Part shown: piece by piece, positions 84-49,619 of the stretch
Layout of the letters: every line of letters begins with the position of its first letter
Numbering within the stretch: the stretch's first letter is position 1
Source of the DNA: a virus
Taxonomy: Duplodnaviria; Heunggongvirae; Uroviricota; Caudoviricetes
DNA: 58,724 bases
Strand: one strand, 5' to 3'
Virus record (IMG/VR): IMGVR_UViG_3300012007_000007
Coordinates: 163,434-222,157 of that record
Made by a program: the position numbers and the translations under genes
The notes under the pieces: generated by a model
The model's input: only the letters and a program-made list of their open reading frames with translations
Databases searched by the model: none
Told to the model about the DNA's origin: nothing

Positions 84-202
84 GATAACTCCTTGTTGAG
101 AACTTATGGCCCATTCAGGTCTGTAAGTAATATAGCAATTTATCACGCGAGTGAATCACCAAGTTGGTGAAAATTGTTGTAAATTTTTATTTACATATTT
201 CG

Positions 203-275
203 AGCTGACGGTAGGAATCGAACCCACTCATGCAAAGTTTTGCAGACTCGCCCGTTCCCACTTCGGCACGTCAGC
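203..275 (-). tRNA. tRNA-Cys(GCA)
   Basis: Cloverleaf by eye: GCTGACG/CGTCAGC acceptor, loop CTGCAAA, TTCGATT T-loop, U73; weak anticodon stem. Confidence 0.85.
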
Positions 276-284
276 ATAAAGTAG

Positions 285-366
285 TCCCGCAGGCAGGACT
301 CGGACCTGCACGCCACTAGGCACTAGTTCCTAAGACTAGCGTGTCTACCAGTTCCACCACTGCGGG
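285..366 (-). tRNA. tRNA-Leu(TAG)
   Basis: CCCGCAG/CTGCGGG acceptor, CTAGT-CTTAGGA-ACTAG anticodon arm, long variable arm, T-loop TCCGAGT. Confidence 0.9.
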
Positions 367-371
367 AGATA

Positions 372-442
372 TTGGCCAGCCAGGCTTCGGACCCAGCCCT
401 GATGGCTCAAAACCACCCGTGCTACCGCTACACCACAGGCCA
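372..442 (-). tRNA. tRNA-Gln(TTG)
   Basis: TGGCCTG/CTGGCCA acceptor, GGTGG-TTTTGAG-CCATC anticodon arm. Confidence 0.85.
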
Positions 443-448
443 TCATAG

Positions 449-532
449 TCCGGAAGGCGGGACTTGAACCCGCACGGAGTATGCCTCCAACGGATTTTAA
501 GTCCGCATTGTCTACCATTCCAACACTACCGG
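449..532 (-). tRNA. tRNA-Leu(TAA)
   Basis: GCGGA-CTTAAAA-TCCGT anticodon arm, long variable arm, GCGGG-TTCAAGT-CCCGC T arm. Confidence 0.9.
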
Positions 533-536
533 ATAG

Positions 537-619
537 TCCCGAGAGCAGGACTTGAACCTGCACGTCTTGCGGACAGGGGATTTTGAGTCCTCCGCGTCTA
601 CCAGTTCCGCCATCACGGG
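537..619 (-). tRNA. tRNA-Leu(CAA)
   Basis: GAGGA-CTCAAAA-TCCCC anticodon arm, long variable arm, canonical T arm. Confidence 0.9.
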
Positions 620-624
620 TCTTA

Positions 625-695
625 TTGGGGACAAAGGTTTCGAACCTCTAATTCCAGAGTCAGAGTCTGGCGTGCTACCGTTACACCAGTCCCCA
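625..695 (-). tRNA. tRNA-Gln(CTG)
   Basis: TGGGGAC/GTCCCCA acceptor, CCAGA-CTCTGAC-TCTGG anticodon arm. Confidence 0.9.
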
Positions 696-705
696 TCGTT
701 TTTAG

Positions 706-778
706 CTCTACCCCCAGGCTACGACCCTGGAACCTCCCGGTTAACAGCCGGGCGTTCTACCAGTTGAACTGGGGTAGA
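706..778 (-). tRNA. tRNA-Asn(GTT), atypical (C8; T-loop GTCGTAG)
   Basis: TCTACCC/GGGTAGA acceptor, CCCGG-CTGTTAA-CCGGG anticodon arm, G73. Confidence 0.85.
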
Positions 779-1633
779 TTATGTATATACACTTACCAGT
801 GAAAGGTCAGATGGATAATGTGTTCTTTTACCAACCGTCTTGCCGCTTAGATATTTTGGTATGAATTTCTTAAATGTGTAATACAAAGCCACTTTGGATA
901 TTTTTAATTCATTAGAAAAATCCTCTAGCTTTGAATAATTACCGGAATGATACCTATCCCATAATTCCCTGGCACGTTGAATTGCTGCATTATGTAGTTC
1001 AATCCTTGGTCTTTTAGTGATTTTCCCGGAGACGGTATTTATGCCAGATGATGCATTCGCTGCACATATTTTGCCACACGGTTGACCCTTTTGTTTTGCA
1101 TAAGCAAATATTTTACTTCTTATAGAAGTGCTCTGCCCATGATACAAATTTCTTCCACGGACCCATTCTTTAGCATCTGGCGGCATTCGGAATACCTTAG
1201 ATTCACCGGTTATATAATTGGTATACCACCGGGTTCCGTAATGTGAATTTCGCTGGCCCCGTTGTGTTATTGCCGTTGTATACCCAACTACTTTAGCAAA
1301 TTGACAACGCAATGTTTCGTATATTCTGGCATTTATATATCGACTGTGGTTATCATTAGTACTACGCATTCTCCAAAACGCAAACATCATTTTACGGTAT
1401 TCATTTGATTCGGGTGGATACAATTTCGTTAATAGCCAATGGCATATAAAGTGTTCTTTAGCAGTAAGCAACGCTCGGTTGCATAATCGGTCTACACCAC
1501 CCAATGCCTTTGGTATAATATGGTGTAGTTCATAGTATTGGCCATGTTTTTGTTGCCAACGACGCTGCTCATAATCAGCTTGCGCTCGCAAAACGATACT
1601 TGCGTATATTCTATTGTAATTCATAACAAACAT
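779..1633 (-). CDS. Free-standing HNH homing endonuclease with C-terminal HTH-like region
   Basis: ELHHIIPKALGG...RALLTAKEHFICHWLL HNH motif; AT-rich; inside the tRNA cluster; TATAAACT motif at 1660-1667 upstream. Confidence 0.85.
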   Translation of the reverse strand: MFVMNYNRIYASIVLRAQADYEQRRWQQKHGQYYELHHIIPKALGGVDRLCNRALLTAKEHFICHWLLTKLYPPESNEYRKMMFAFWRMRSTNDNHSRYINARIYETLRCQFAKVVGYTTAITQRGQRNSHYGTRWYTNYITGESKVFRMPPDAKEWVRGRNLYHGQSTSIRSKIFAYAKQKGQPCGKICAANASSGINTVSGKITKRPRIELHNAAIQRARELWDRYHSGNYSKLEDFSNELKISKVALYYTFKKFIPKYLSGKTVGKRTHYPSDLSLVSVYT

Positions 1634-1671
1634 CCGGCAATGTTTTATGTTCTGCCTTCAGTTTATAGGGA

Positions 1672-1733
1672 ATGCTAGGGTAAGACTATGTCAAACATAG
1701 GTCAGGCAGTGCCGGCTGCTTGTCCCCTAGCAC
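1672..1733 (-). other. Branched stem-loop between tRNA-Tyr and the HNH gene
   Basis: GTGCTAGGG...CCCTAGCAT closing stem enclosing GCAG-CCGGCA-CTGC and CTATGT-TTG-ACATAG hairpins. Confidence 0.5.
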
Positions 1734-1796
1734 TACTTAAACTACAACATGTTTATCCAATTTATATAATTATATGAATTGATAGAATTTACTTAA

Positions 1797-1881
1797 TGCC
1801 AGCGGTTGGACTCGAACCAACGAAAGCAGTTTAATGCGAGAGGGTTACGGCCTCCTGGAATTGCCACTATCCGACGCTGGC
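1797..1881 (-). tRNA. tRNA-Tyr(GTA), C33 variant
   Basis: GCCAGCG/CGCTGGC acceptor, GGAGG-CCGTAAC-CCTCT anticodon arm, long variable arm. Confidence 0.88.
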
Positions 1882-1882
1882 T

Positions 1883-1952
1883 TGGTGGAGCATTTCGTAT
1901 GCAAGCCCCCAGCATTAGAGCCAAGCTCAACAGGCACCATCTATGAAGCCCC
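1883..1952 (-). ncRNA. 70-nt tRNA-like RNA with Ala-type ends (GGGGC...GCTCCACCA), no canonical cloverleaf
   Basis: Ends pair G1:C, G2:C, G3:U, G4:C, C5:G followed by A-CCA; fills the gap between tRNA-Asp and tRNA-Tyr. Confidence 0.55.
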
Positions 1953-1962
1953 ATATTTTTAA

Positions 1963-2036
1963 CGATGCCTGAGAGATTCGAACTCTCGAATGTCGGTTAG
2001 ACAGACCGATGTGTTAGGCCACTTCACCAAGGCACC
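1963..2036 (-). tRNA. tRNA-Asp(GTC), U37 variant
   Basis: GGTGCCT/AGGCATC acceptor, TCGGT-CTGTCTA-ACCGA anticodon arm, G73. Confidence 0.85.
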
Positions 2037-2044
2037 ATTCTTAG

Positions 2045-2117
2045 TGCCGCCGGGAGGAATCGAACCTCCGACACGGGGATTTTCAGTCCCCTGCTCTACC
2101 GACTGAGCTACAGCGGC
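2045..2117 (-). tRNA. tRNA-Phe(GAA)
   Basis: Canonical cloverleaf, GGGGA-CTGAAAA-TCCCC. Confidence 0.95.
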
Positions 2118-2127
2118 AAACTGTTCG

Positions 2128-2202
2128 TCCGCGACTCTCGACTTGAACGAGAACATCTCCGCCTTATCAGAGCGGCGTGTTAACCAATTACACCAGACGC
2201 GG
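2128..2202 (-). tRNA. tRNA-Ile(GAT)
   Basis: CCGCT-CTGATAA-GGCGG anticodon arm, TCTCG-TTCAAGT-CGAGA T arm. Confidence 0.88.
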
Positions 2203-2206
2203 ATAG

Positions 2207-2279
2207 TAGCGCCGCCGGGATTCGAACCCGAGTTCCATGAATGAAAATCACGTGTCCTAGGCCTCTAGACGACGGCGCC
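2207..2279 (-). tRNA. tRNA-Glu(TTC)
   Basis: GGCGCCG/CGGCGCT acceptor, GTCTAGAGGCCTAGGAC D arm, CGTGA-TTTTCAT-TCATG. Confidence 0.92.
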
Positions 2280-2294
2280 ATATTAGTTTGTTCA

Positions 2295-2371
2295 TAGTCA
2301 CTGAGAGGCTCGAACTCCCGACCTCCGCGTTCGTAGCGCGGCGCTCTGAATTCCAACTGAGCTAAGTGACT
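2295..2371 (-). tRNA. tRNA-Arg(ACG)
   Basis: AGTCACT/AGTGACT acceptor, CCGCG-CTACGAA-CGCGG. Confidence 0.92.
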
Positions 2372-2375
2372 GTAG

Positions 2376-2449
2376 TGGAACGTGACGGGGCTCGAACCCG
2401 TAACCTCCTCGTTGCGAACGAGGCGCTCTTCCAATTGAGCTACACCCCC
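2376..2449 (-). tRNA. tRNA-Ala(CGC) with 1-nt acceptor-stem bulge
   Basis: 5' GGGGGTG, 3' CAC-G-TTCC-A; CCTCG-TTCGCAA-CGAGG; G3:U70 retained in the bulged register. Confidence 0.88.
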
Positions 2450-2457
2450 AAAGTTAC

Positions 2458-2531
2458 TGGAACGTGACGGGACTCGAACCCGTAACCTCCTGAATGCAAA
2501 TCAGGCGCTCTTCCAATTGAGCTACACCCCC
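2458..2531 (-). tRNA. tRNA-Ala(TGC) with 1-nt acceptor-stem bulge
   Basis: Same body as 2376-2449; CCTGA-TTTGCAT-TCAGG. Confidence 0.88.
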
Positions 2532-2539
2532 ATAGTTAC

Positions 2540-2615
2540 TGGACACATATCGGGCTCGAACCGATGACCTCCTGCCTGCCAGACAGGCGCTCTACCAAAA
2601 CTGAGCTAATGGCCC
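2540..2615 (-). tRNA. tRNA-Ala(GGC) with 1-nt acceptor-stem bulge, different sequence body
   Basis: 5' GGGCCAT, 3' ATG-T-GTCC-A; CCTGT-CTGGCAG-GCAGG. Confidence 0.88.
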
Positions 2616-2677
2616 ATAAAGAAAAACACATCCGGAATTTCAATCTGCAGCAACGCTGCTCGAACGCTGCACTTTAG

Positions 2678-2751
2678 TGGAACGTGACGGGGCTCGAACC
2701 CGTAACCTCCTCGCTGCCGGCGAGGCGCTCTTCCAATTGAGCTACACCCCC
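2678..2751 (-). tRNA. tRNA-Ala(GGC) second copy, C33 variant, 1-nt acceptor-stem bulge
   Basis: Same body as 2376-2449; CCTCG-CCGGCAG-CGAGG. Confidence 0.82.
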
Positions 2752-2765
2752 AAACGGTTAAACGG

Positions 2766-2798
2766 AAAGGGCGGTTGCCGCTGATGCAACCGCCCTTT
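2766..2798 (-). terminator. Intrinsic terminator directly upstream of the first tRNA-Ala (attenuator terminator)
   Basis: Perfect 13-bp inverted repeat AAAGGGCGGTTGC-ATCAGCG-GCAACCGCCCTTT followed by CCGTTT on the minus strand. Confidence 0.8.
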
Positions 2799-2845
2799 TC
2801 GTCTCTTGTAAACCTTTCGTCTACCTGGAACTAGGTTGCATCAGC
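2780..2845 (-). promoter_or_regulatory. Antiterminator helix of a putative attenuator
   Basis: Perfect 12-bp inverted repeat: minus-strand GCTGATGCAACC (2845-2834, last leader codons) pairs with GGTTGCATCAGC (2791-2780, terminator 5' arm and loop). Confidence 0.75.
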
Positions 2846-2938
2846 CTCCGCGTGTTCTGCGAAATCCAACACGGCAAAATAGCGGTTACCCTGTGCGGCA
2901 CCCGCTAAGTTACAAATATTGTTGAATTGCTTCTGCAT
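2831..2938 (-). CDS. Putative attenuator leader peptide MQKQFNNICNLAGAAQGNRYFAVLDFAEHAEADAT (35 aa, 8 Ala)
   Basis: Translated by hand (not in the ORF track); AAGGAA ribosome-binding site upstream of ATG; last codons coincide with the antiterminator strand. Confidence 0.72.
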   Translation of the reverse strand: MQKQFNNICNLAGAAQGNRYFAVLDFAEHAEADAT

Positions 2939-2969
2939 CGTTAATTCCTTTGACGTAATGTTTATAACA

Positions 2970-2998
2970 ATTGTAGAAATAAATATCCCGTTTTGCAA
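2970..2998 (-). promoter_or_regulatory. Sigma70-like promoter of the leader/tRNA operon
   Basis: TTGCAA (2998-2993), 17-nt spacer, TACAAT (2975-2970); a late-like TATAAACA follows at 2966-2959. Confidence 0.65.
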
Positions 2999-3018
2999 GA
3001 CTGTAAGTAAAAAATAAG

Positions 3019-5510: not shown

Positions 5511-5538
5511 AAAAAAATGGCGGGGTTTCGCCCGCCCC
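5511..5538 (-). terminator. Intrinsic terminator after the tRNA-Gly/ncRNA unit
   Basis: GGCGGG-CGAAAC-CCCGCC followed by ATTTTTTT. Confidence 0.75.
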
Positions 5539-5550
5539 AAATATAGCAAA

Positions 5551-5807
5551 AGTTGGAGCGCATGCGCAACCCCGGCGGACTGACAGCCGTAAGAACGCAC
5601 CGCGGCTAAGCCGCACCGTCGACCATAACGCCAGCCGTTTAGACTCCTTGCGGAGGGCCGTCGCCACAGGACAGCGCAACCGTTGCGCAGCACCGGGCCG
5701 TCATCCCGCTTATCGCGGACCCCCAGGTTTGCCCCTCGGCCTCCCGTTTCGAACCGGGAAGCTCCGGAATGGCCAAGCCCGCGTGGGGCGGCGCATGCAC
5801 GCCAACT
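5551..5807 (-). ncRNA. Candidate 257-nt structured ncRNA of unknown class
   Basis: 17-nt closing inverted repeat (one mismatch, one G:U on the minus strand); several internal hairpins; begins 5 nt after tRNA-Gly and is followed by a U tract and a terminator. Confidence 0.7.
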
Positions 5808-5885: not shown

Positions 5886-5992
5886 TGATACCACAAATAT
5901 AGCAAAAATATCTACCGGTGGAACGAAAAATCTTCTAAAAAATCAATTTCCTGTCGTTCCGGGGATTGCTATCACGTGCGATACCACGGTAC

Positions 5993-6223
5993 CTATTTCT
6001 TTATGGATACCCCCATCCCGCCAACATCGAGGAGCCTCCCGTCGGTGAGGTAGAGCCTTACGAACGTGTTCCCGAAGGAGTCCTCCATGGATTCGGCCTT
6101 CTTCACGTTGTAATAGACCTGCGTATAGCAGTGGTTGTACCTGCAAAGTTCGAGGACGACAGTATTCTTCGCCGGGAAGGCAAATGACACGACGAATGCG
6201 ACAATGAACAGAATCTTCTTCAT
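5993..6223 (-). CDS. Small exported protein (76 aa)
   Basis: MKKILFIVAFVVSFAFPA signal-peptide-like N terminus. Confidence 0.65.
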   Translation of the reverse strand: MKKILFIVAFVVSFAFPAKNTVVLELCRYNHCYTQVYYNVKKAESMEDSFGNTFVRLYLTDGRLLDVGGMGVSIKK

Positions 6224-6233
6224 ATCCGAGAGT

Positions 6234-6398
6234 TTAGTAAATCTGGTACTCGGTATCGCCACACACCTTGGTGGAGTCGCTGGTCGTCTGGCACTGGTAC
6301 AGGTAGCTGGAGCCGTCATCCTTGGAGCATCCCTGGAGGGTGTAGGCCATCAGGGCAAGGAGGCCGACAAGCAGTATTACGCAAATATAGCTACGCAT
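6234..6398 (-). CDS. Small lipoprotein (54 aa; MRSYICVILLVGLLALMAYTLQG-CSKDDGSS...)
   Basis: Translated by hand; hydrophobic stretch plus LQGC lipobox-like motif; fills the gap between ligase and the 76-aa gene. Confidence 0.6.
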   Translation of the reverse strand: MRSYICVILLVGLLALMAYTLQGCSKDDGSSYLYQCQTTSDSTKVCGDTEYQIY

Positions 6399-13233: not shown

Positions 13234-14060
13234 CAGAACACACTCCCCTGGTCGACTAGGCCGAGCTGCTGGGCACGCATCGCAAGCATCTGTGACACCT
13301 CGTTGCTGAAGTCCTGCACCGGGAACATCTGCTGCGTAGCCGCCTCGCTGGAGAACCAGCATAGATAGCACTGGCCAATGGGAATGCCGGTGGCCTCCAT
13401 GAACAGCTTCTTGTACATGTTGAGCTGCAGGGAGTACTTGTGGTACTCGCAGTTCGCCAGGTGGCTGAAAGGGGGATTGAACTTGAAGTTGGAATCCAGG
13501 TCGAACTTCTCGTTGGTCTTCCAGTCCCATATCTGGAACTCGTTCGCCTTCTTGTTCCAGAAAATCTGGTCGACGATGCCGCACACCATGTACTTGGGCG
13601 AACCCACCACCTGTTCGGACAGTACAGGTATCAGCTTGCCCCGGATGGATTCACGGAAACTATCGACCTGCAATATGATGCGGTTGTAGCGGTCGCGCAC
13701 CGGGTCGCTGGTGTCGTTGGGGAATTCCTTCATCACGGCCGCATCGTCGTAACGGTAGAACTTGTTTGCTATGGCCGCCTCGAGATACGCGTGGACGTTG
13801 ATTCCGAGGACGGTGGAGACCTTGCCCTTGTGGTTCCATTCGGCTATGACCTCCTCCGGGGTGACCGGGACGCCACGCTCCCTGGTCCACTTCTCGGCTG
13901 TCTTGGCCGACTGCGTCACCTTGTCGAATGGTGGTATGTACGACTCAATCAGCTTGTTCACGCCGAGCAGCTTCACCGCGTTTATCGTGAACGTGCTCCA
14001 CTTCGTGTCGGCCTTAATCATGCCGAATGCATTGTCTACTCTCTCGAAGAATTCCTGCAT
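13233..14060 (-). CDS. PD-(D/E)XK (RecB/Cas4-like) nuclease
   Basis: G..VH..LE, SEQVV, CGIVDQI, IWDWKT, YSLQLNMY motifs. Confidence 0.88.
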   Translation of the reverse strand: MQEFFERVDNAFGMIKADTKWSTFTINAVKLLGVNKLIESYIPPFDKVTQSAKTAEKWTRERGVPVTPEEVIAEWNHKGKVSTVLGINVHAYLEAAIANKFYRYDDAAVMKEFPNDTSDPVRDRYNRIILQVDSFRESIRGKLIPVLSEQVVGSPKYMVCGIVDQIFWNKKANEFQIWDWKTNEKFDLDSNFKFNPPFSHLANCEYHKYSLQLNMYKKLFMEATGIPIGQCYLCWFSSEAATQQMFPVQDFSNEVSQMLAMRAQQLGLVDQGSVF

Positions 14061-19676: not shown

Positions 19677-21245
19677 CTACTTCACCTCGGCTATCTGGAT
19701 GGAACCGGTAGTGGACCAGCTTACTCCGGACCGCGTGCACGCAACCTTGAACATACAGGATGTCTCGGCGGCAACTATGGTCATGCTCCCGTTCACGTGG
19801 TTAGGAATACCGTTACTTCCGGTAATGCTTTCATCGATGATGTGCCTCCGATTGTAGTTGCTGCTTGCAAATGTTGCAGCAAAAATCAACTCATCCAGGT
19901 ACAATCCGGCCGTCGCCAGCGTGATGCTGAGACTGTATGTGACCACATATACCTTCCCGACAACCAGTCCGGTAACCTTGTTGTTGGACACGTTCATGTC
20001 GGAACTGCGAGCGCTTGGAGTAGCGAGGGTAAGCGCAGATGCCGTCGAGGTACAGGTACCAGATACGTCGATGAACGCGTATGATGGCTGTATCACCGCC
20101 CTTGTGTCCTTCCATGCCGACACCAAGTTGCTCCCGCTCGTTTCCGTGGTCAGGACAAGACCGGCTCCAGCAGGGGCTGTCGAAGGCAGGGGTACCTTCA
20201 GGAACTTGTCGAAATCATAGCTTACGGCCGCGCTGCCGTTGTATGTCTTTGTTCCGTCGTTGGTGTTGATAAGTGAAAGCGAAGCGGCATTGTGCGTGTG
20301 GTCGGCCGCAGACACGAGGACATATCCGCTAGATGGATTGTACGTTCCGGGACTACTTGCGCTGCCTATTGCCGTAGCGCTGTCGCCAATCTGCACCAGC
20401 CCGGGTACGGTTACGCGCGCCGGCGTGCTGGGCACTGTTACGTCTGACGAAGAAGCGGTCGTGACATGTCCAGCCGAATCCACAACAAACGACAACGACT
20501 TGAAATTACCGCCAAAATCCGGGGTGGCGGTCTGGGTTGCCGGATAGGTACCGGCAGTTACTCCCGATGTGCTGTGCCGCAACGTGTTGCTTGCCGCATC
20601 GACAAACAGAATCTTCTTCTGCCCACCAGTCGACGAGTCTGGCTCCGGTGAAGGCGTGCCTATCTCTATGTCAACCTGCCTGGTATATGCGGCGTCATTA
20701 TCAACTACGAACGTACCAACGCCGTTCTTCATCACCAGGTCGCTTGGAATTGGAACGAAGTGCCCAGTTTCGGTGGTCTCCCCGGCATGCTCCGGGTCGG
20801 CAACATACCTGTACTGAGTGTATATCGTCTTGCCGCCTACCGTCCTCACGTCACGGTACACGTTGTCTATTACCGGCTGTTCTTGAGGGTCCACCGCAGG
20901 ACCGGGGCAAACGTACTCCGTACCGGTAGCAGAATCGGTAAATACCCAGTCGCCGGTGGGGTCCTCCGGGATGGCCATCGTCCCGTCTATTACATTATCC
21001 ACTTTGTGGGGAAGCATGTTCTGGGGGACCAGATGTGTCTTGGTTAGCAAGGCTATGCGGTTCATCGGTATGTGACGGGTTCCCTGGTCTATCAACGGGG
21101 ATTGACCCTCGACGGGGTCCGGAACCACATAATCTATTGCGGCCGACCACTTTGCAGCCTCCTCCGGATTCTTTATGAGGGTATCTATCTGGGCACTGGT
21201 TATCGGGTCCAGCTCTGCTATGCGTTTTTGCTTCAATTTGGCCAT
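19677..21245 (-). CDS. Tail-fibre protein
   Basis: Thr/Ser/Gly-rich; VDSAGHVT and ADHTH fibre motifs; TATAAACT at 21341-21348. Confidence 0.72.
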   Translation of the reverse strand: MAKLKQKRIAELDPITSAQIDTLIKNPEEAAKWSAAIDYVVPDPVEGQSPLIDQGTRHIPMNRIALLTKTHLVPQNMLPHKVDNVIDGTMAIPEDPTGDWVFTDSATGTEYVCPGPAVDPQEQPVIDNVYRDVRTVGGKTIYTQYRYVADPEHAGETTETGHFVPIPSDLVMKNGVGTFVVDNDAAYTRQVDIEIGTPSPEPDSSTGGQKKILFVDAASNTLRHSTSGVTAGTYPATQTATPDFGGNFKSLSFVVDSAGHVTTASSSDVTVPSTPARVTVPGLVQIGDSATAIGSASSPGTYNPSSGYVLVSAADHTHNAASLSLINTNDGTKTYNGSAAVSYDFDKFLKVPLPSTAPAGAGLVLTTETSGSNLVSAWKDTRAVIQPSYAFIDVSGTCTSTASALTLATPSARSSDMNVSNNKVTGLVVGKVYVVTYSLSITLATAGLYLDELIFAATFASSNYNRRHIIDESITGSNGIPNHVNGSMTIVAAETSCMFKVACTRSGVSWSTTGSIQIAEVK

Positions 21246-49605: not shown

Positions 49606-49619
49606 TTTTGCTATATTTG
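49606..49619 (+). promoter_or_regulatory. TTTTGCTATATTTG motif, putative host-type (TAnnTTTG) promoter
   Basis: Recurs at 5538, 5894, 8521, 51075, 51589, 52677 and 54068, always just upstream of a gene or tRNA and in its orientation. Confidence 0.7.

Follow-up and report, generated by a model that had tools for sequence, protein, structure and literature searches.

A cluster of 17 tRNA genes at the start of a long stretch of tailed-phage DNA is preceded by a short open reading frame (ORF) and a hairpin. From evidence that is computational throughout, we conclude that this ORF-hairpin-tRNA unit is probably a ribosome-mediated (leader-peptide) transcription attenuator that gates a phage tRNA operon. 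The stretch analyzed, referred to here as the window, comprises 58,724 nucleotides (nt) from a member of the Caudoviricetes (IMG/VR record IMGVR_UViG_3300012007_000007, positions 163,434 to 222,157). It is the final 58.7 kb of a 222-kb record that is estimated to be 78% complete, and we found no close relative of this virus among deposited phage genomes. Why phages carry tRNA genes, and how these genes are expressed, has been debated for decades. A first-pass annotation of the window, made from its letters alone, had proposed that a translation-sensing attenuator, altered tRNAs and a decoy RNA together form an inducible, nuclease-hardened back-up operon. Of this synthesis, conditional expression governed by translation is supported in silico by the analysis described below, whereas the decoy RNA is not.

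A short ORF and a hairpin lie between a promoter-like site and the first tRNA gene

On the minus strand, the stop codon of a gene specifying an 823-amino-acid (aa) protein is followed in order by a promoter-like site, the sequence AAGGA, the leader ORF, a 32-nt spacer, a hairpin, a U-rich tail, and the gene for tRNA-Ala(GGC), which begins at 2751 (Table 1). The hexamers of the promoter-like site that resemble -35 and -10 elements are, by eye, conserved in position in two of the relatives introduced below (L003 and L004), and the copy in a third (L039) is an exact TATATTTG box. The predicted leader peptide contains 8 Ala, 4 Asn, 3 Gln, 3 Phe, 2 Leu, 2 Asp and 2 Glu residues, and neither it nor the 823-aa neighbor matched a Pfam or PHROG family. 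Two aspects of this arrangement stand out. First, the end of the ORF (strand A) is perfectly complementary to the 5′ arm and loop of the hairpin (2791-2780, termed strand B). Second, the hairpin ends 14 nt 5′ of the first tRNA and its U-rich tail abuts tRNA-Ala(GGC), which leaves no space for a separate promoter.

The leader is rich in codons read by the tRNAs that follow it

To quantify the relationship between the leader and the tRNA genes behind it, we scored each sense codon after the start codon as matched if, under standard wobble rules, it is read by a tRNA encoded no more than 3.5 kb downstream. In the window, 28 of the 34 codons are read by the 17 downstream tRNAs, where the phage's own genes would predict a fraction of 0.47-0.48 (P = 2.6e-5). 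Leaders from relatives gave similar results, with 31/34 codons matched in L039 (0.59 expected), 30/44 in L004 (0.26 expected, P = 6e-9) and 35/44 in L038 (0.34 expected, P = 1e-9), and significance held in every case when the tRNA set was limited to the first uninterrupted run of tRNA genes. The five other frames of the window leader have matches of only 0.14-0.67, and mononucleotide and codon-position shuffles attained the observed match in at most 2 of 10,000 trials (P ≤ 2e-4). The match is also extreme with respect to the genome as a whole: a score of 28 was attained by just 5 of 52,431 34-codon segments of genes and exceeded by none, while a match of 0.82 was attained by one of the 502 ATG-started ORFs of 30-45 codons.

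The codon content of each leader follows, to a degree, the tRNA content of its own lineage. When leaders and tRNA sets were cross-compared, the lineage's own leader was the best or equal-best match in five of six columns. In eight of nine informative comparisons, a lineage's leader contained the codons that only its own tRNA set reads at a frequency equal to or above that in the other leader, a weak trend among comparisons that are not independent; the ninth, L004 versus L003, was level (4/44 versus 3/34). In the L004 lineage, whose tRNA array starts Phe-Ala-Ala-Tyr-Ala, the leader carries a ten-codon insertion in which nine of the ten codons specify Phe, Tyr, Ala or Gln.

The unit is conserved in four lineages

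Using the neighboring 823-aa protein as a handle, we retrieved relatives from two IMG/VR contigs and several metagenome contigs. A homologous small ORF of 35 or 45 codons was present in every relative with enough downstream sequence (L003, L034, L039, L004, L036 and L038), and the order promoter, ORF, hairpin, tRNA was repeated in each of them. These relatives represent four lineages with 41-47% identity in the 823-aa protein. The ATG, the TAG and the reading frame are kept in all four, the differences in length are whole codons, and several conserved residues are specified by synonymous codons. The hairpins of the relatives have predicted energies of -21 to -29 kcal/mol, their 12-nt tails contain 5-8 U residues, two positions in the stem show covariation, being GC in some lineages and AU in others, and the first tRNA or tRNA remnant lies 11-16 nt beyond the hairpin. 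The remnant is that of L003, where the terminator is followed first by a decayed tRNA-Ala(GGC) (13255-13327) whose acceptor, anticodon and T arms are recognizable but whose D arm is absent, and which ARAGORN did not call.

Wider searches did not extend this set. An exact-pattern scan of IMG/VR for the hairpin returned 22 contigs, only two of which, both known relatives, contained the leader, the others being unrelated palindromes, and a scan of IMG/VR with the peptide pattern returned L003's contig only. More distant homologues of the 823-aa protein (L029, L030 and L040-L051) have no tRNA genes nearby and are thus uninformative regarding the leader.

Conservation of the peptide itself raises the possibility of a different explanation, namely that the ORF encodes an ordinary small phage protein, senses nothing and is followed by a leaky terminator of its own, with constitutive expression of the tRNAs through read-through or from the promoter of the 823-aa gene. 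Ten peptide positions are invariant across lineages and an N-terminal KQ-x-NN-x-C-x-L pattern is kept with synonymous changes, and we could identify no convincing terminator between the 823-aa gene and the leader. On the other hand, the peptide lacks a recognized family, and this explanation does not account for the genome-extreme match between the codons of the ORF and the tRNAs behind it. The RNA structures described in the next section bear on it further.

The end of the ORF and the 3′ arm of the hairpin are predicted to compete for the same strand

We next considered the structures that the leader RNA might adopt. Since leaders of 35 and 45 codons do not align properly, a whole-leader consensus (MAFFT/RNAalifold) was informative only for the terminator, and structures were therefore compared by folding each lineage separately. 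Relative to shuffled sequence, the free leader is much more stably folded (z = -6.4 in the window and -5.9 in L004), and the minimum-energy fold contains the terminator in all four lineages. In the predicted folds of all four, the ribosome-binding site is paired with bases at or just past the stop codon; in the window GGAAUUA pairs with UAGUUCC (the 7 nt from the stop codon onward, 2833-2827), and in L004 AAAGGAUU pairs with AGUCUUUU. Sequestration of the ribosome-binding site in the free RNA implies that translation would be limited to the first ribosome, loading during transcription.

Strong folding and a paired ribosome-binding site would also be expected if the leader were a structured non-coding RNA or processing element (a 5′ stabilizer, or an RNase site for the tRNA precursor) whose ORF is never translated. 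The probable host type adds to this, since the promoters are of Bacteroidota style and Bacteroidota make little use of Shine-Dalgarno pairing. Set against it are the reading frame, start and stop codons kept across the 35- and 45-codon versions with whole-codon differences only, and a codon match that is confined to one frame of six. We consider a non-coding role very improbable.

Withholding the 3′ arm of the terminator from the folding, to represent the moment before polymerase has completed it, led, in all four lineages, to pairing of the 5′ arm with the last 10-12 nt of the ORF. In the window this A:B duplex comprises 12 bp (-24 kcal/mol). In each lineage it is the best partner for the 5′ arm anywhere in the ORF (-18 to -24 kcal/mol; P = 0.007-0.05 relative to pairing at any position in dinucleotide-shuffled ORFs), and in every lineage it ends 2-3 nt short of the end of the ORF, stop codon included. 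The L004 lineage makes the pairing from different bases (CUGCAACUGC with GCGGUUGCAG). Single-base differences in L003, L039, L036 and L038 give G-U pairs and no mismatches, and a change in the L039 loop loses one pair. In a footprint simulation that considers geometry only, the A:B pairing remained intact with the ribosomal P site as far along as about codon 27 of 35 (or 38 of 45) and was lost only with the P site in the last seven or so codons or at the stop codon. The stop codon lies 21-36 nt 5′ of the stem, with the core motif 26-38 nt away, a distance at which a terminating ribosome would leave the terminator itself unmelted.

These structures count against an ordinary small gene. That the end of the ORF is complementary to the 5′ arm of the hairpin, in two lineages with different sequences, would go unexplained, as would the pairing of the ribosome-binding site with bases past the stop codon. 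The U tract, which in the window is broken up (UUUCCGUUU), does fit a terminator that leaks. On balance we regard an ordinary gene with constitutive tRNA expression as unlikely.

From the anatomy, conservation, codon match and alternative pairing observed here, we infer instead an attenuator in which the ORF would be translated, transcription would terminate at the hairpin, and a race between ribosome and RNA polymerase would decide the outcome. Transcription would begin at the promoter-like site, and a ribosome would load onto the 35-codon leader as polymerase proceeds. A fast ribosome would reach the UAG and cover strand A, the terminator would form, and transcription would stop just before the first tRNA. 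A lagging ribosome would leave strand A naked, strand A would pair with strand B before the 3′ arm exists, and polymerase would continue into the 17 tRNA genes. The leader samples operon-read codons for approximately 11 amino acids (Ala, Asn, Gln, Phe, Leu, Asp, Glu, Cys, Ile, Arg and Tyr). Because about four-fifths of its codons are read by the operon's own tRNAs, it would serve as a multivalent gauge of those pools and would place the phage's tRNA supply under negative feedback. The translation-sensing attenuator suggested earlier for this site is thus favored by a conserved ORF, an in-frame codon match and a modeled choice between terminator and antiterminator that depends on the ribosome.

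Table 1. Features of the leader and of the tRNA cluster behind it (window coordinates)
Feature	Coordinates	Strand	Description
Promoter-like site	2970..2998	-	TTGCAA-17 nt-TACAAT; its TACAATTG box departs from the phage-wide TATATTTG box by a single mismatch
Ribosome-binding site (predicted)	2946..2950	-	AAGGA, purine-rich; 7 nt 5′ of the ATG
Leader ORF	2831..2938	-	35 codons (2938-2834) and TAG stop codon (2833-2831)
Antiterminator strand A (predicted)	2834..2845	-	last four sense codons, GCT GAT GCA ACC; would be covered by a ribosome at the stop codon
Terminator hairpin (predicted)	2766..2798	-	13-bp stem, 7-nt loop, -23.8 kcal/mol
U-rich tail	2752..2768	-	UUUCCGUUUAACCGUUU; reaches the first base of tRNA-Ala
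First tRNA block	1797..2751	-	Ala-GGC, Ala-GGC, Ala-UGC, Ala-CGC, Arg-ACG, Glu-UUC, Ile-GAU, Phe-GAA, Asp-GUC, Tyr-GUA
63-nt spacer	2616..2678	-	after the first tRNA-Ala; 8-bp hairpin followed by motif AGATTGAAATTCCGGATG; not a copy of the standard promoter
70-nt CCA-ending element	1883..1952	-	starts GGGGC, ends GCTCCACCA
HNH homing endonuclease gene	779..1633	-	between tRNA-Tyr and tRNA-Asn; 855 nt plus a 163-nt upstream region; phrog_655, E = 2e-29
Second tRNA block	202..778	-	Asn-GUU, Gln-CUG, Leu-CAA, Leu-UAA, Gln-UUG, Leu-UAG, Cys-GCA

The tRNA genes form a co-oriented cluster with few candidate internal signals

ARAGORN and Rfam agree on 17 tRNA genes between 202 and 2751, all on the minus strand and hence co-oriented, as the first-pass annotation had noted, and these belong to an island of 31 tRNA genes the whole of which lies on that strand. 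Most spacers between tRNAs are 3-15 nt, the exceptions being the 63-nt spacer, one of 80 nt between tRNA-Asp and tRNA-Tyr, and the HNH insertion. Homologues of the HNH protein (37-40% identity) occupy other inter-tRNA junctions in L003 and L034, which marks the HNH gene as a mobile insertion into a once-continuous tRNA array. The only terminator-like sites within the cluster are parts of tRNAs, in agreement with the earlier statement that no internal terminator is obvious.

If the leader is to control the cluster, internal promoters should be few or weak. The genome contains 45 copies of the phage's standard promoter, TTTGC-TATATTTG, where 6.8 would be expected. An ATG often follows at a distance of only 4-6 nt, so that the resulting mRNAs would be leaderless or nearly so. 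The TAnnTTTG form of this promoter presumably points to an RNA polymerase of Bacteroidota type in the host. A scan of the genome placed no copy of this standard promoter within the tRNA cluster. The looser TAnnTTTG form occurs inside the cluster only as TAACTTTG (2456) and TATGTTTG (1699), both without the TTTGC that precedes 39 of the 45 standard copies. TAACTTTG is too near the next tRNA to serve that tRNA. TATGTTTG is located 66 nt before the start of the HNH gene, so the late-like motif ascribed to that gene does exist, though lacking TTTGC it is a weak one. A second candidate promoter class, based on the sequence ATAAACAT that is common to the leader and the region upstream of HNH, was rejected because its 7 copies equal chance expectation.

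The 63-nt spacer after the first tRNA-Ala is a further candidate for an internal signal. Between the window and L003 its hairpin differs, by eye, by one compensatory change and two exchanges between G-U and Watson-Crick pairs. The hairpin together with AGATTGACAGTYCGGATG is also found in L052 (at about 6300-6345), L003 (16712), L034 (8761) and L039 (7222), and in four genomes an AGATTGA..CGGATG motif also precedes a tRNA-Met/Glu sub-cluster, where a TATATTTG promoter box invariably lies a short distance upstream of it. As copies of the AGATTGACAGTCCGGATG-type motif sit just downstream of promoter boxes, we consider an RNA element likelier than an internal promoter.

Several observations concern the surroundings of the cluster. 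Standard promoters occur elsewhere in the window, for example at 5901, 5545, 6389 and 15689 on the minus strand and at 49612, 51079 and 52684 on the plus strand. Several are followed directly by a GC-rich hairpin and a run of T residues (window 5519-5552, minus strand; genome positions 19447, 130951 and 150792), an example being the TATATTTG-GGGCGGGCGAAACCCCGCC-ATTTTTTT arrangement before the 823-aa gene; these hairpins may be 5′ stem-loops or promoter-proximal terminators. Beyond the last tRNA, a gene that starts at 85 and runs out of the window is preceded by a near-consensus promoter of its own, AAATTGCTATATTAC, and by a strong ribosome-binding site, AAGGAG (85-202, minus strand); it probably does not belong to the tRNA operon. 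Only two copies of the 10-mer TTACTTACAG (minus strand) are present in the 222-kb genome (0.4 expected), one immediately upstream of the leader promoter (3001-3010) and one immediately downstream of the last tRNA of the cluster (121-130), and they may be a scar of module insertion or a product of chance.

Elsewhere in the window, an ORF of 76 aa with a signal-peptide-like N-terminus (5992-6222, minus strand) lies between a DNA ligase gene and tRNA-Gly(CCC), and four of its last 30 codons are GGG (background 2%), the sole codon of tRNA-Gly(CCC). We considered this GGG-rich match as a second leader and rejected it, as it is simply the C-terminus of the 76-aa protein; there is no terminator between the ORF and tRNA-Gly(CCC), so its GGG richness is probably coincidence. 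None of the tRNAs of the island has an encoded CCA, and most carry a discriminator followed by C-TA, that is, only the first C of CCA, which is consistent with reliance on a CCA-adding enzyme. In L003, ARAGORN predicts a transfer-messenger RNA (tmRNA; tag ADNAFAYAVAA) within the tRNA island (19736-20095), and it predicts none in the genome of the phage studied here.

Altered tRNAs are present but a decoy RNA is not apparent

The alterations to tRNA loops and acceptor stems on which the first-pass annotation had drawn are present at the level of sequence. Position 33 is C in the anticodon loops of tRNA-Tyr (CCGUAAC) and the first tRNA-Ala-GGC (CCGGCAG), and position 37 is U in that of tRNA-Asp (CUGUCUA). 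In all four tRNA-Ala genes the 3′ strand of the acceptor stem contains eight bases where seven are expected, and Infernal and ARAGORN accommodate this with a C discriminator and one or two non-standard pairs. If one base is read as a bulge, these tRNAs regain G3:U70 and A73, and their ends then match the N73-C-UA trailer of most of the phage's tRNAs. The irregular stem is common to the L003, L034 and L039 lineages and absent from L004.

The third element, a decoy RNA at 1883-1952, found no support. The predicted folding of the 70-nt element is no more stable than that of shuffled sequence (z = +0.23), none of the relatives has an equivalent, and Rfam gave no match at E ≤ 1. Only its ends, GGGGC...GCUCCACCA, resemble tRNA-Ala or tmRNA, and it is probably a decayed remnant of a tRNA-Ala-like or tmRNA-like gene.

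Taken together, such features might indicate an anti-defense back-up that is induced when nucleases deplete tRNAs, with altered tRNAs (C33, U37, acceptor bulge) that resist the nuclease and a tRNA-like RNA that acts as a decoy. Phage tRNAs with anticodon-loop changes that evade anticodon nucleases have been documented by van den Berg et al. 2023 (PMC10264068). The C33 and U37 loops seen here are deviations of the same kind, yet that work set phage loops against host loops and known nuclease determinants, whereas the putative hardening here is read from departures from the universal tRNA consensus, and the resemblance is a lead only. C33 occurs in about 15 of approximately 185 tRNAs in the clade, including the tRNA-Tyr of two separate lineages, and alternates with U33 between close relatives. 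This pattern fits selection for loop variation and tolerance or decay equally well, the latter because the first tRNA-Ala is a remnant in L003; relaxed constraint would account for both observations.

Rescue by phage tRNAs is likewise documented. The tRNA-Tyr of T5 and SP15 provides rescue from retron-Eco7 PtuAB (PMC11555353), and phage tRNA-Lys is reported to counter PrrC and PARIS (PMC11464382). As in the present case, the tRNA genes involved lie in tRNA-rich regions, and they replace host tRNAs lost in infection. Rescue from retron-Eco7, however, requires an exceptionally strong promoter and thus relies on constitutive abundance (PMC11555353), whereas expression of the cluster described here would be conditional. 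An attenuator of the type we propose would react to depletion by nucleases, and a link to anti-phage defense is possible but not needed, as feedback between supply and demand explains the anatomy equally well. With its decoy neither conserved, stably folded nor matched to an RNA family, we view a dedicated anti-defense operon as improbable.

Discussion

A number of observations weigh against attenuation by the leader. At equilibrium the terminator always wins, and the proposed switch must therefore rely on kinetics. The U tract is interrupted, and a consensus terminator scan omitted the leader hairpin from its list of terminator-like sites, probably owing to A/U pairs that extend the stem into the U tract. 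Where strands A and B have changed, wobble pairing absorbs the difference, and none of the changes is a true compensatory one. Unlike the his and phe leaders, this one has no tandem run of a single regulatory codon, and a search for leaders before the other tRNA blocks of the genome found no ORF that stands out. The invariant residues could also be those of a functional small protein or of an arrest peptide. Even if the leader works as proposed, a weak HNH-borne promoter at 1699 could let the last seven tRNAs bypass it, and the conserved spacer element could hold a signal of its own. Finally, there are only about four independent lineages. It is this small number, together with the behavior at equilibrium, the broken U tract and the purely computational nature of the analysis, that keeps our confidence in the attenuator only somewhat above even.

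Classical leader-peptide attenuators include trpL, hisL, pheL and leuL, as well as the multivalent thrL and the 32-codon ilvGMEDA leader. The phage unit has the same parts as those of amino-acid operons: a promoter and a ribosome-binding site precede a short ORF rich in the codons that would be gauged, a putative intrinsic terminator separates this ORF from the first regulated gene, and an antiterminator forms with the 5′ arm of the terminator, so that the position of the ribosome would decide between the two. As in the ilvGMEDA and thr leaders, several amino acids would be sensed together. The phage leader differs in that it is phage-encoded, samples about 11 amino acids, and would regulate tRNAs rather than biosynthetic enzymes, thereby gauging and correcting the tRNA pool itself. 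It differs too from the 1:2 "superattenuation" state of trp, since in folding simulations the phage antiterminator is the default partner even when no ribosome is present. T-box riboswitches also couple read-through to tRNA, with competing terminator and antiterminator structures set by tRNA charging; unlike the phage leader, they bind uncharged tRNA directly, need no ORF, and regulate genes for aminoacyl-tRNA synthetases, transport and biosynthesis. No T-box match emerged in this region.

To our knowledge, the phage tRNA genes studied to date are constitutive and promoter-driven, and the sole inducible tRNA array in print is that of Anabaena, which is controlled by a repressor. The trn L-array of Anabaena sp. 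PCC 7120 is a silent tRNA operon induced by translational stress (PMC8421152), and its repressor TrcR, a ribbon-helix-helix protein, binds direct repeats over the -10 box (PMC10272220). The two systems have in common an extra tRNA array that is kept low and switched on when translation is impaired. They differ in that the Anabaena array is cellular or plasmid-borne and is controlled at its promoter by TrcR, in a paper that makes no mention of a leader, attenuator or terminator. Full-text searches of the literature found no account of leader peptides or attenuators before tRNA operons, in phages or elsewhere. What is new is thus the genes regulated, tRNAs, and the quantity sensed, their own codons, a combination that is unpublished as far as we have searched.

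Considering the evidence jointly, we lean, by a small measure, toward the idea that phages self-regulate their tRNA supply through a multivalent leader-peptide attenuator that is on when ribosomes slow and off once decoding speed is restored, that this is a general and convergent principle, and that it doubles as a sensor of tRNA depletion by defense nucleases. The combination of a codon match and a terminator offers a simple sequence signature with which to locate such switches in other phages. If the proposal is correct, the phage measures decoding speed and corrects it by feedback, and classical attenuation extends from the synthesis of amino acids to that of tRNAs. Should host tRNA-cleaving defenses trigger the switch, it would constitute a new layer of phage counter-defense.

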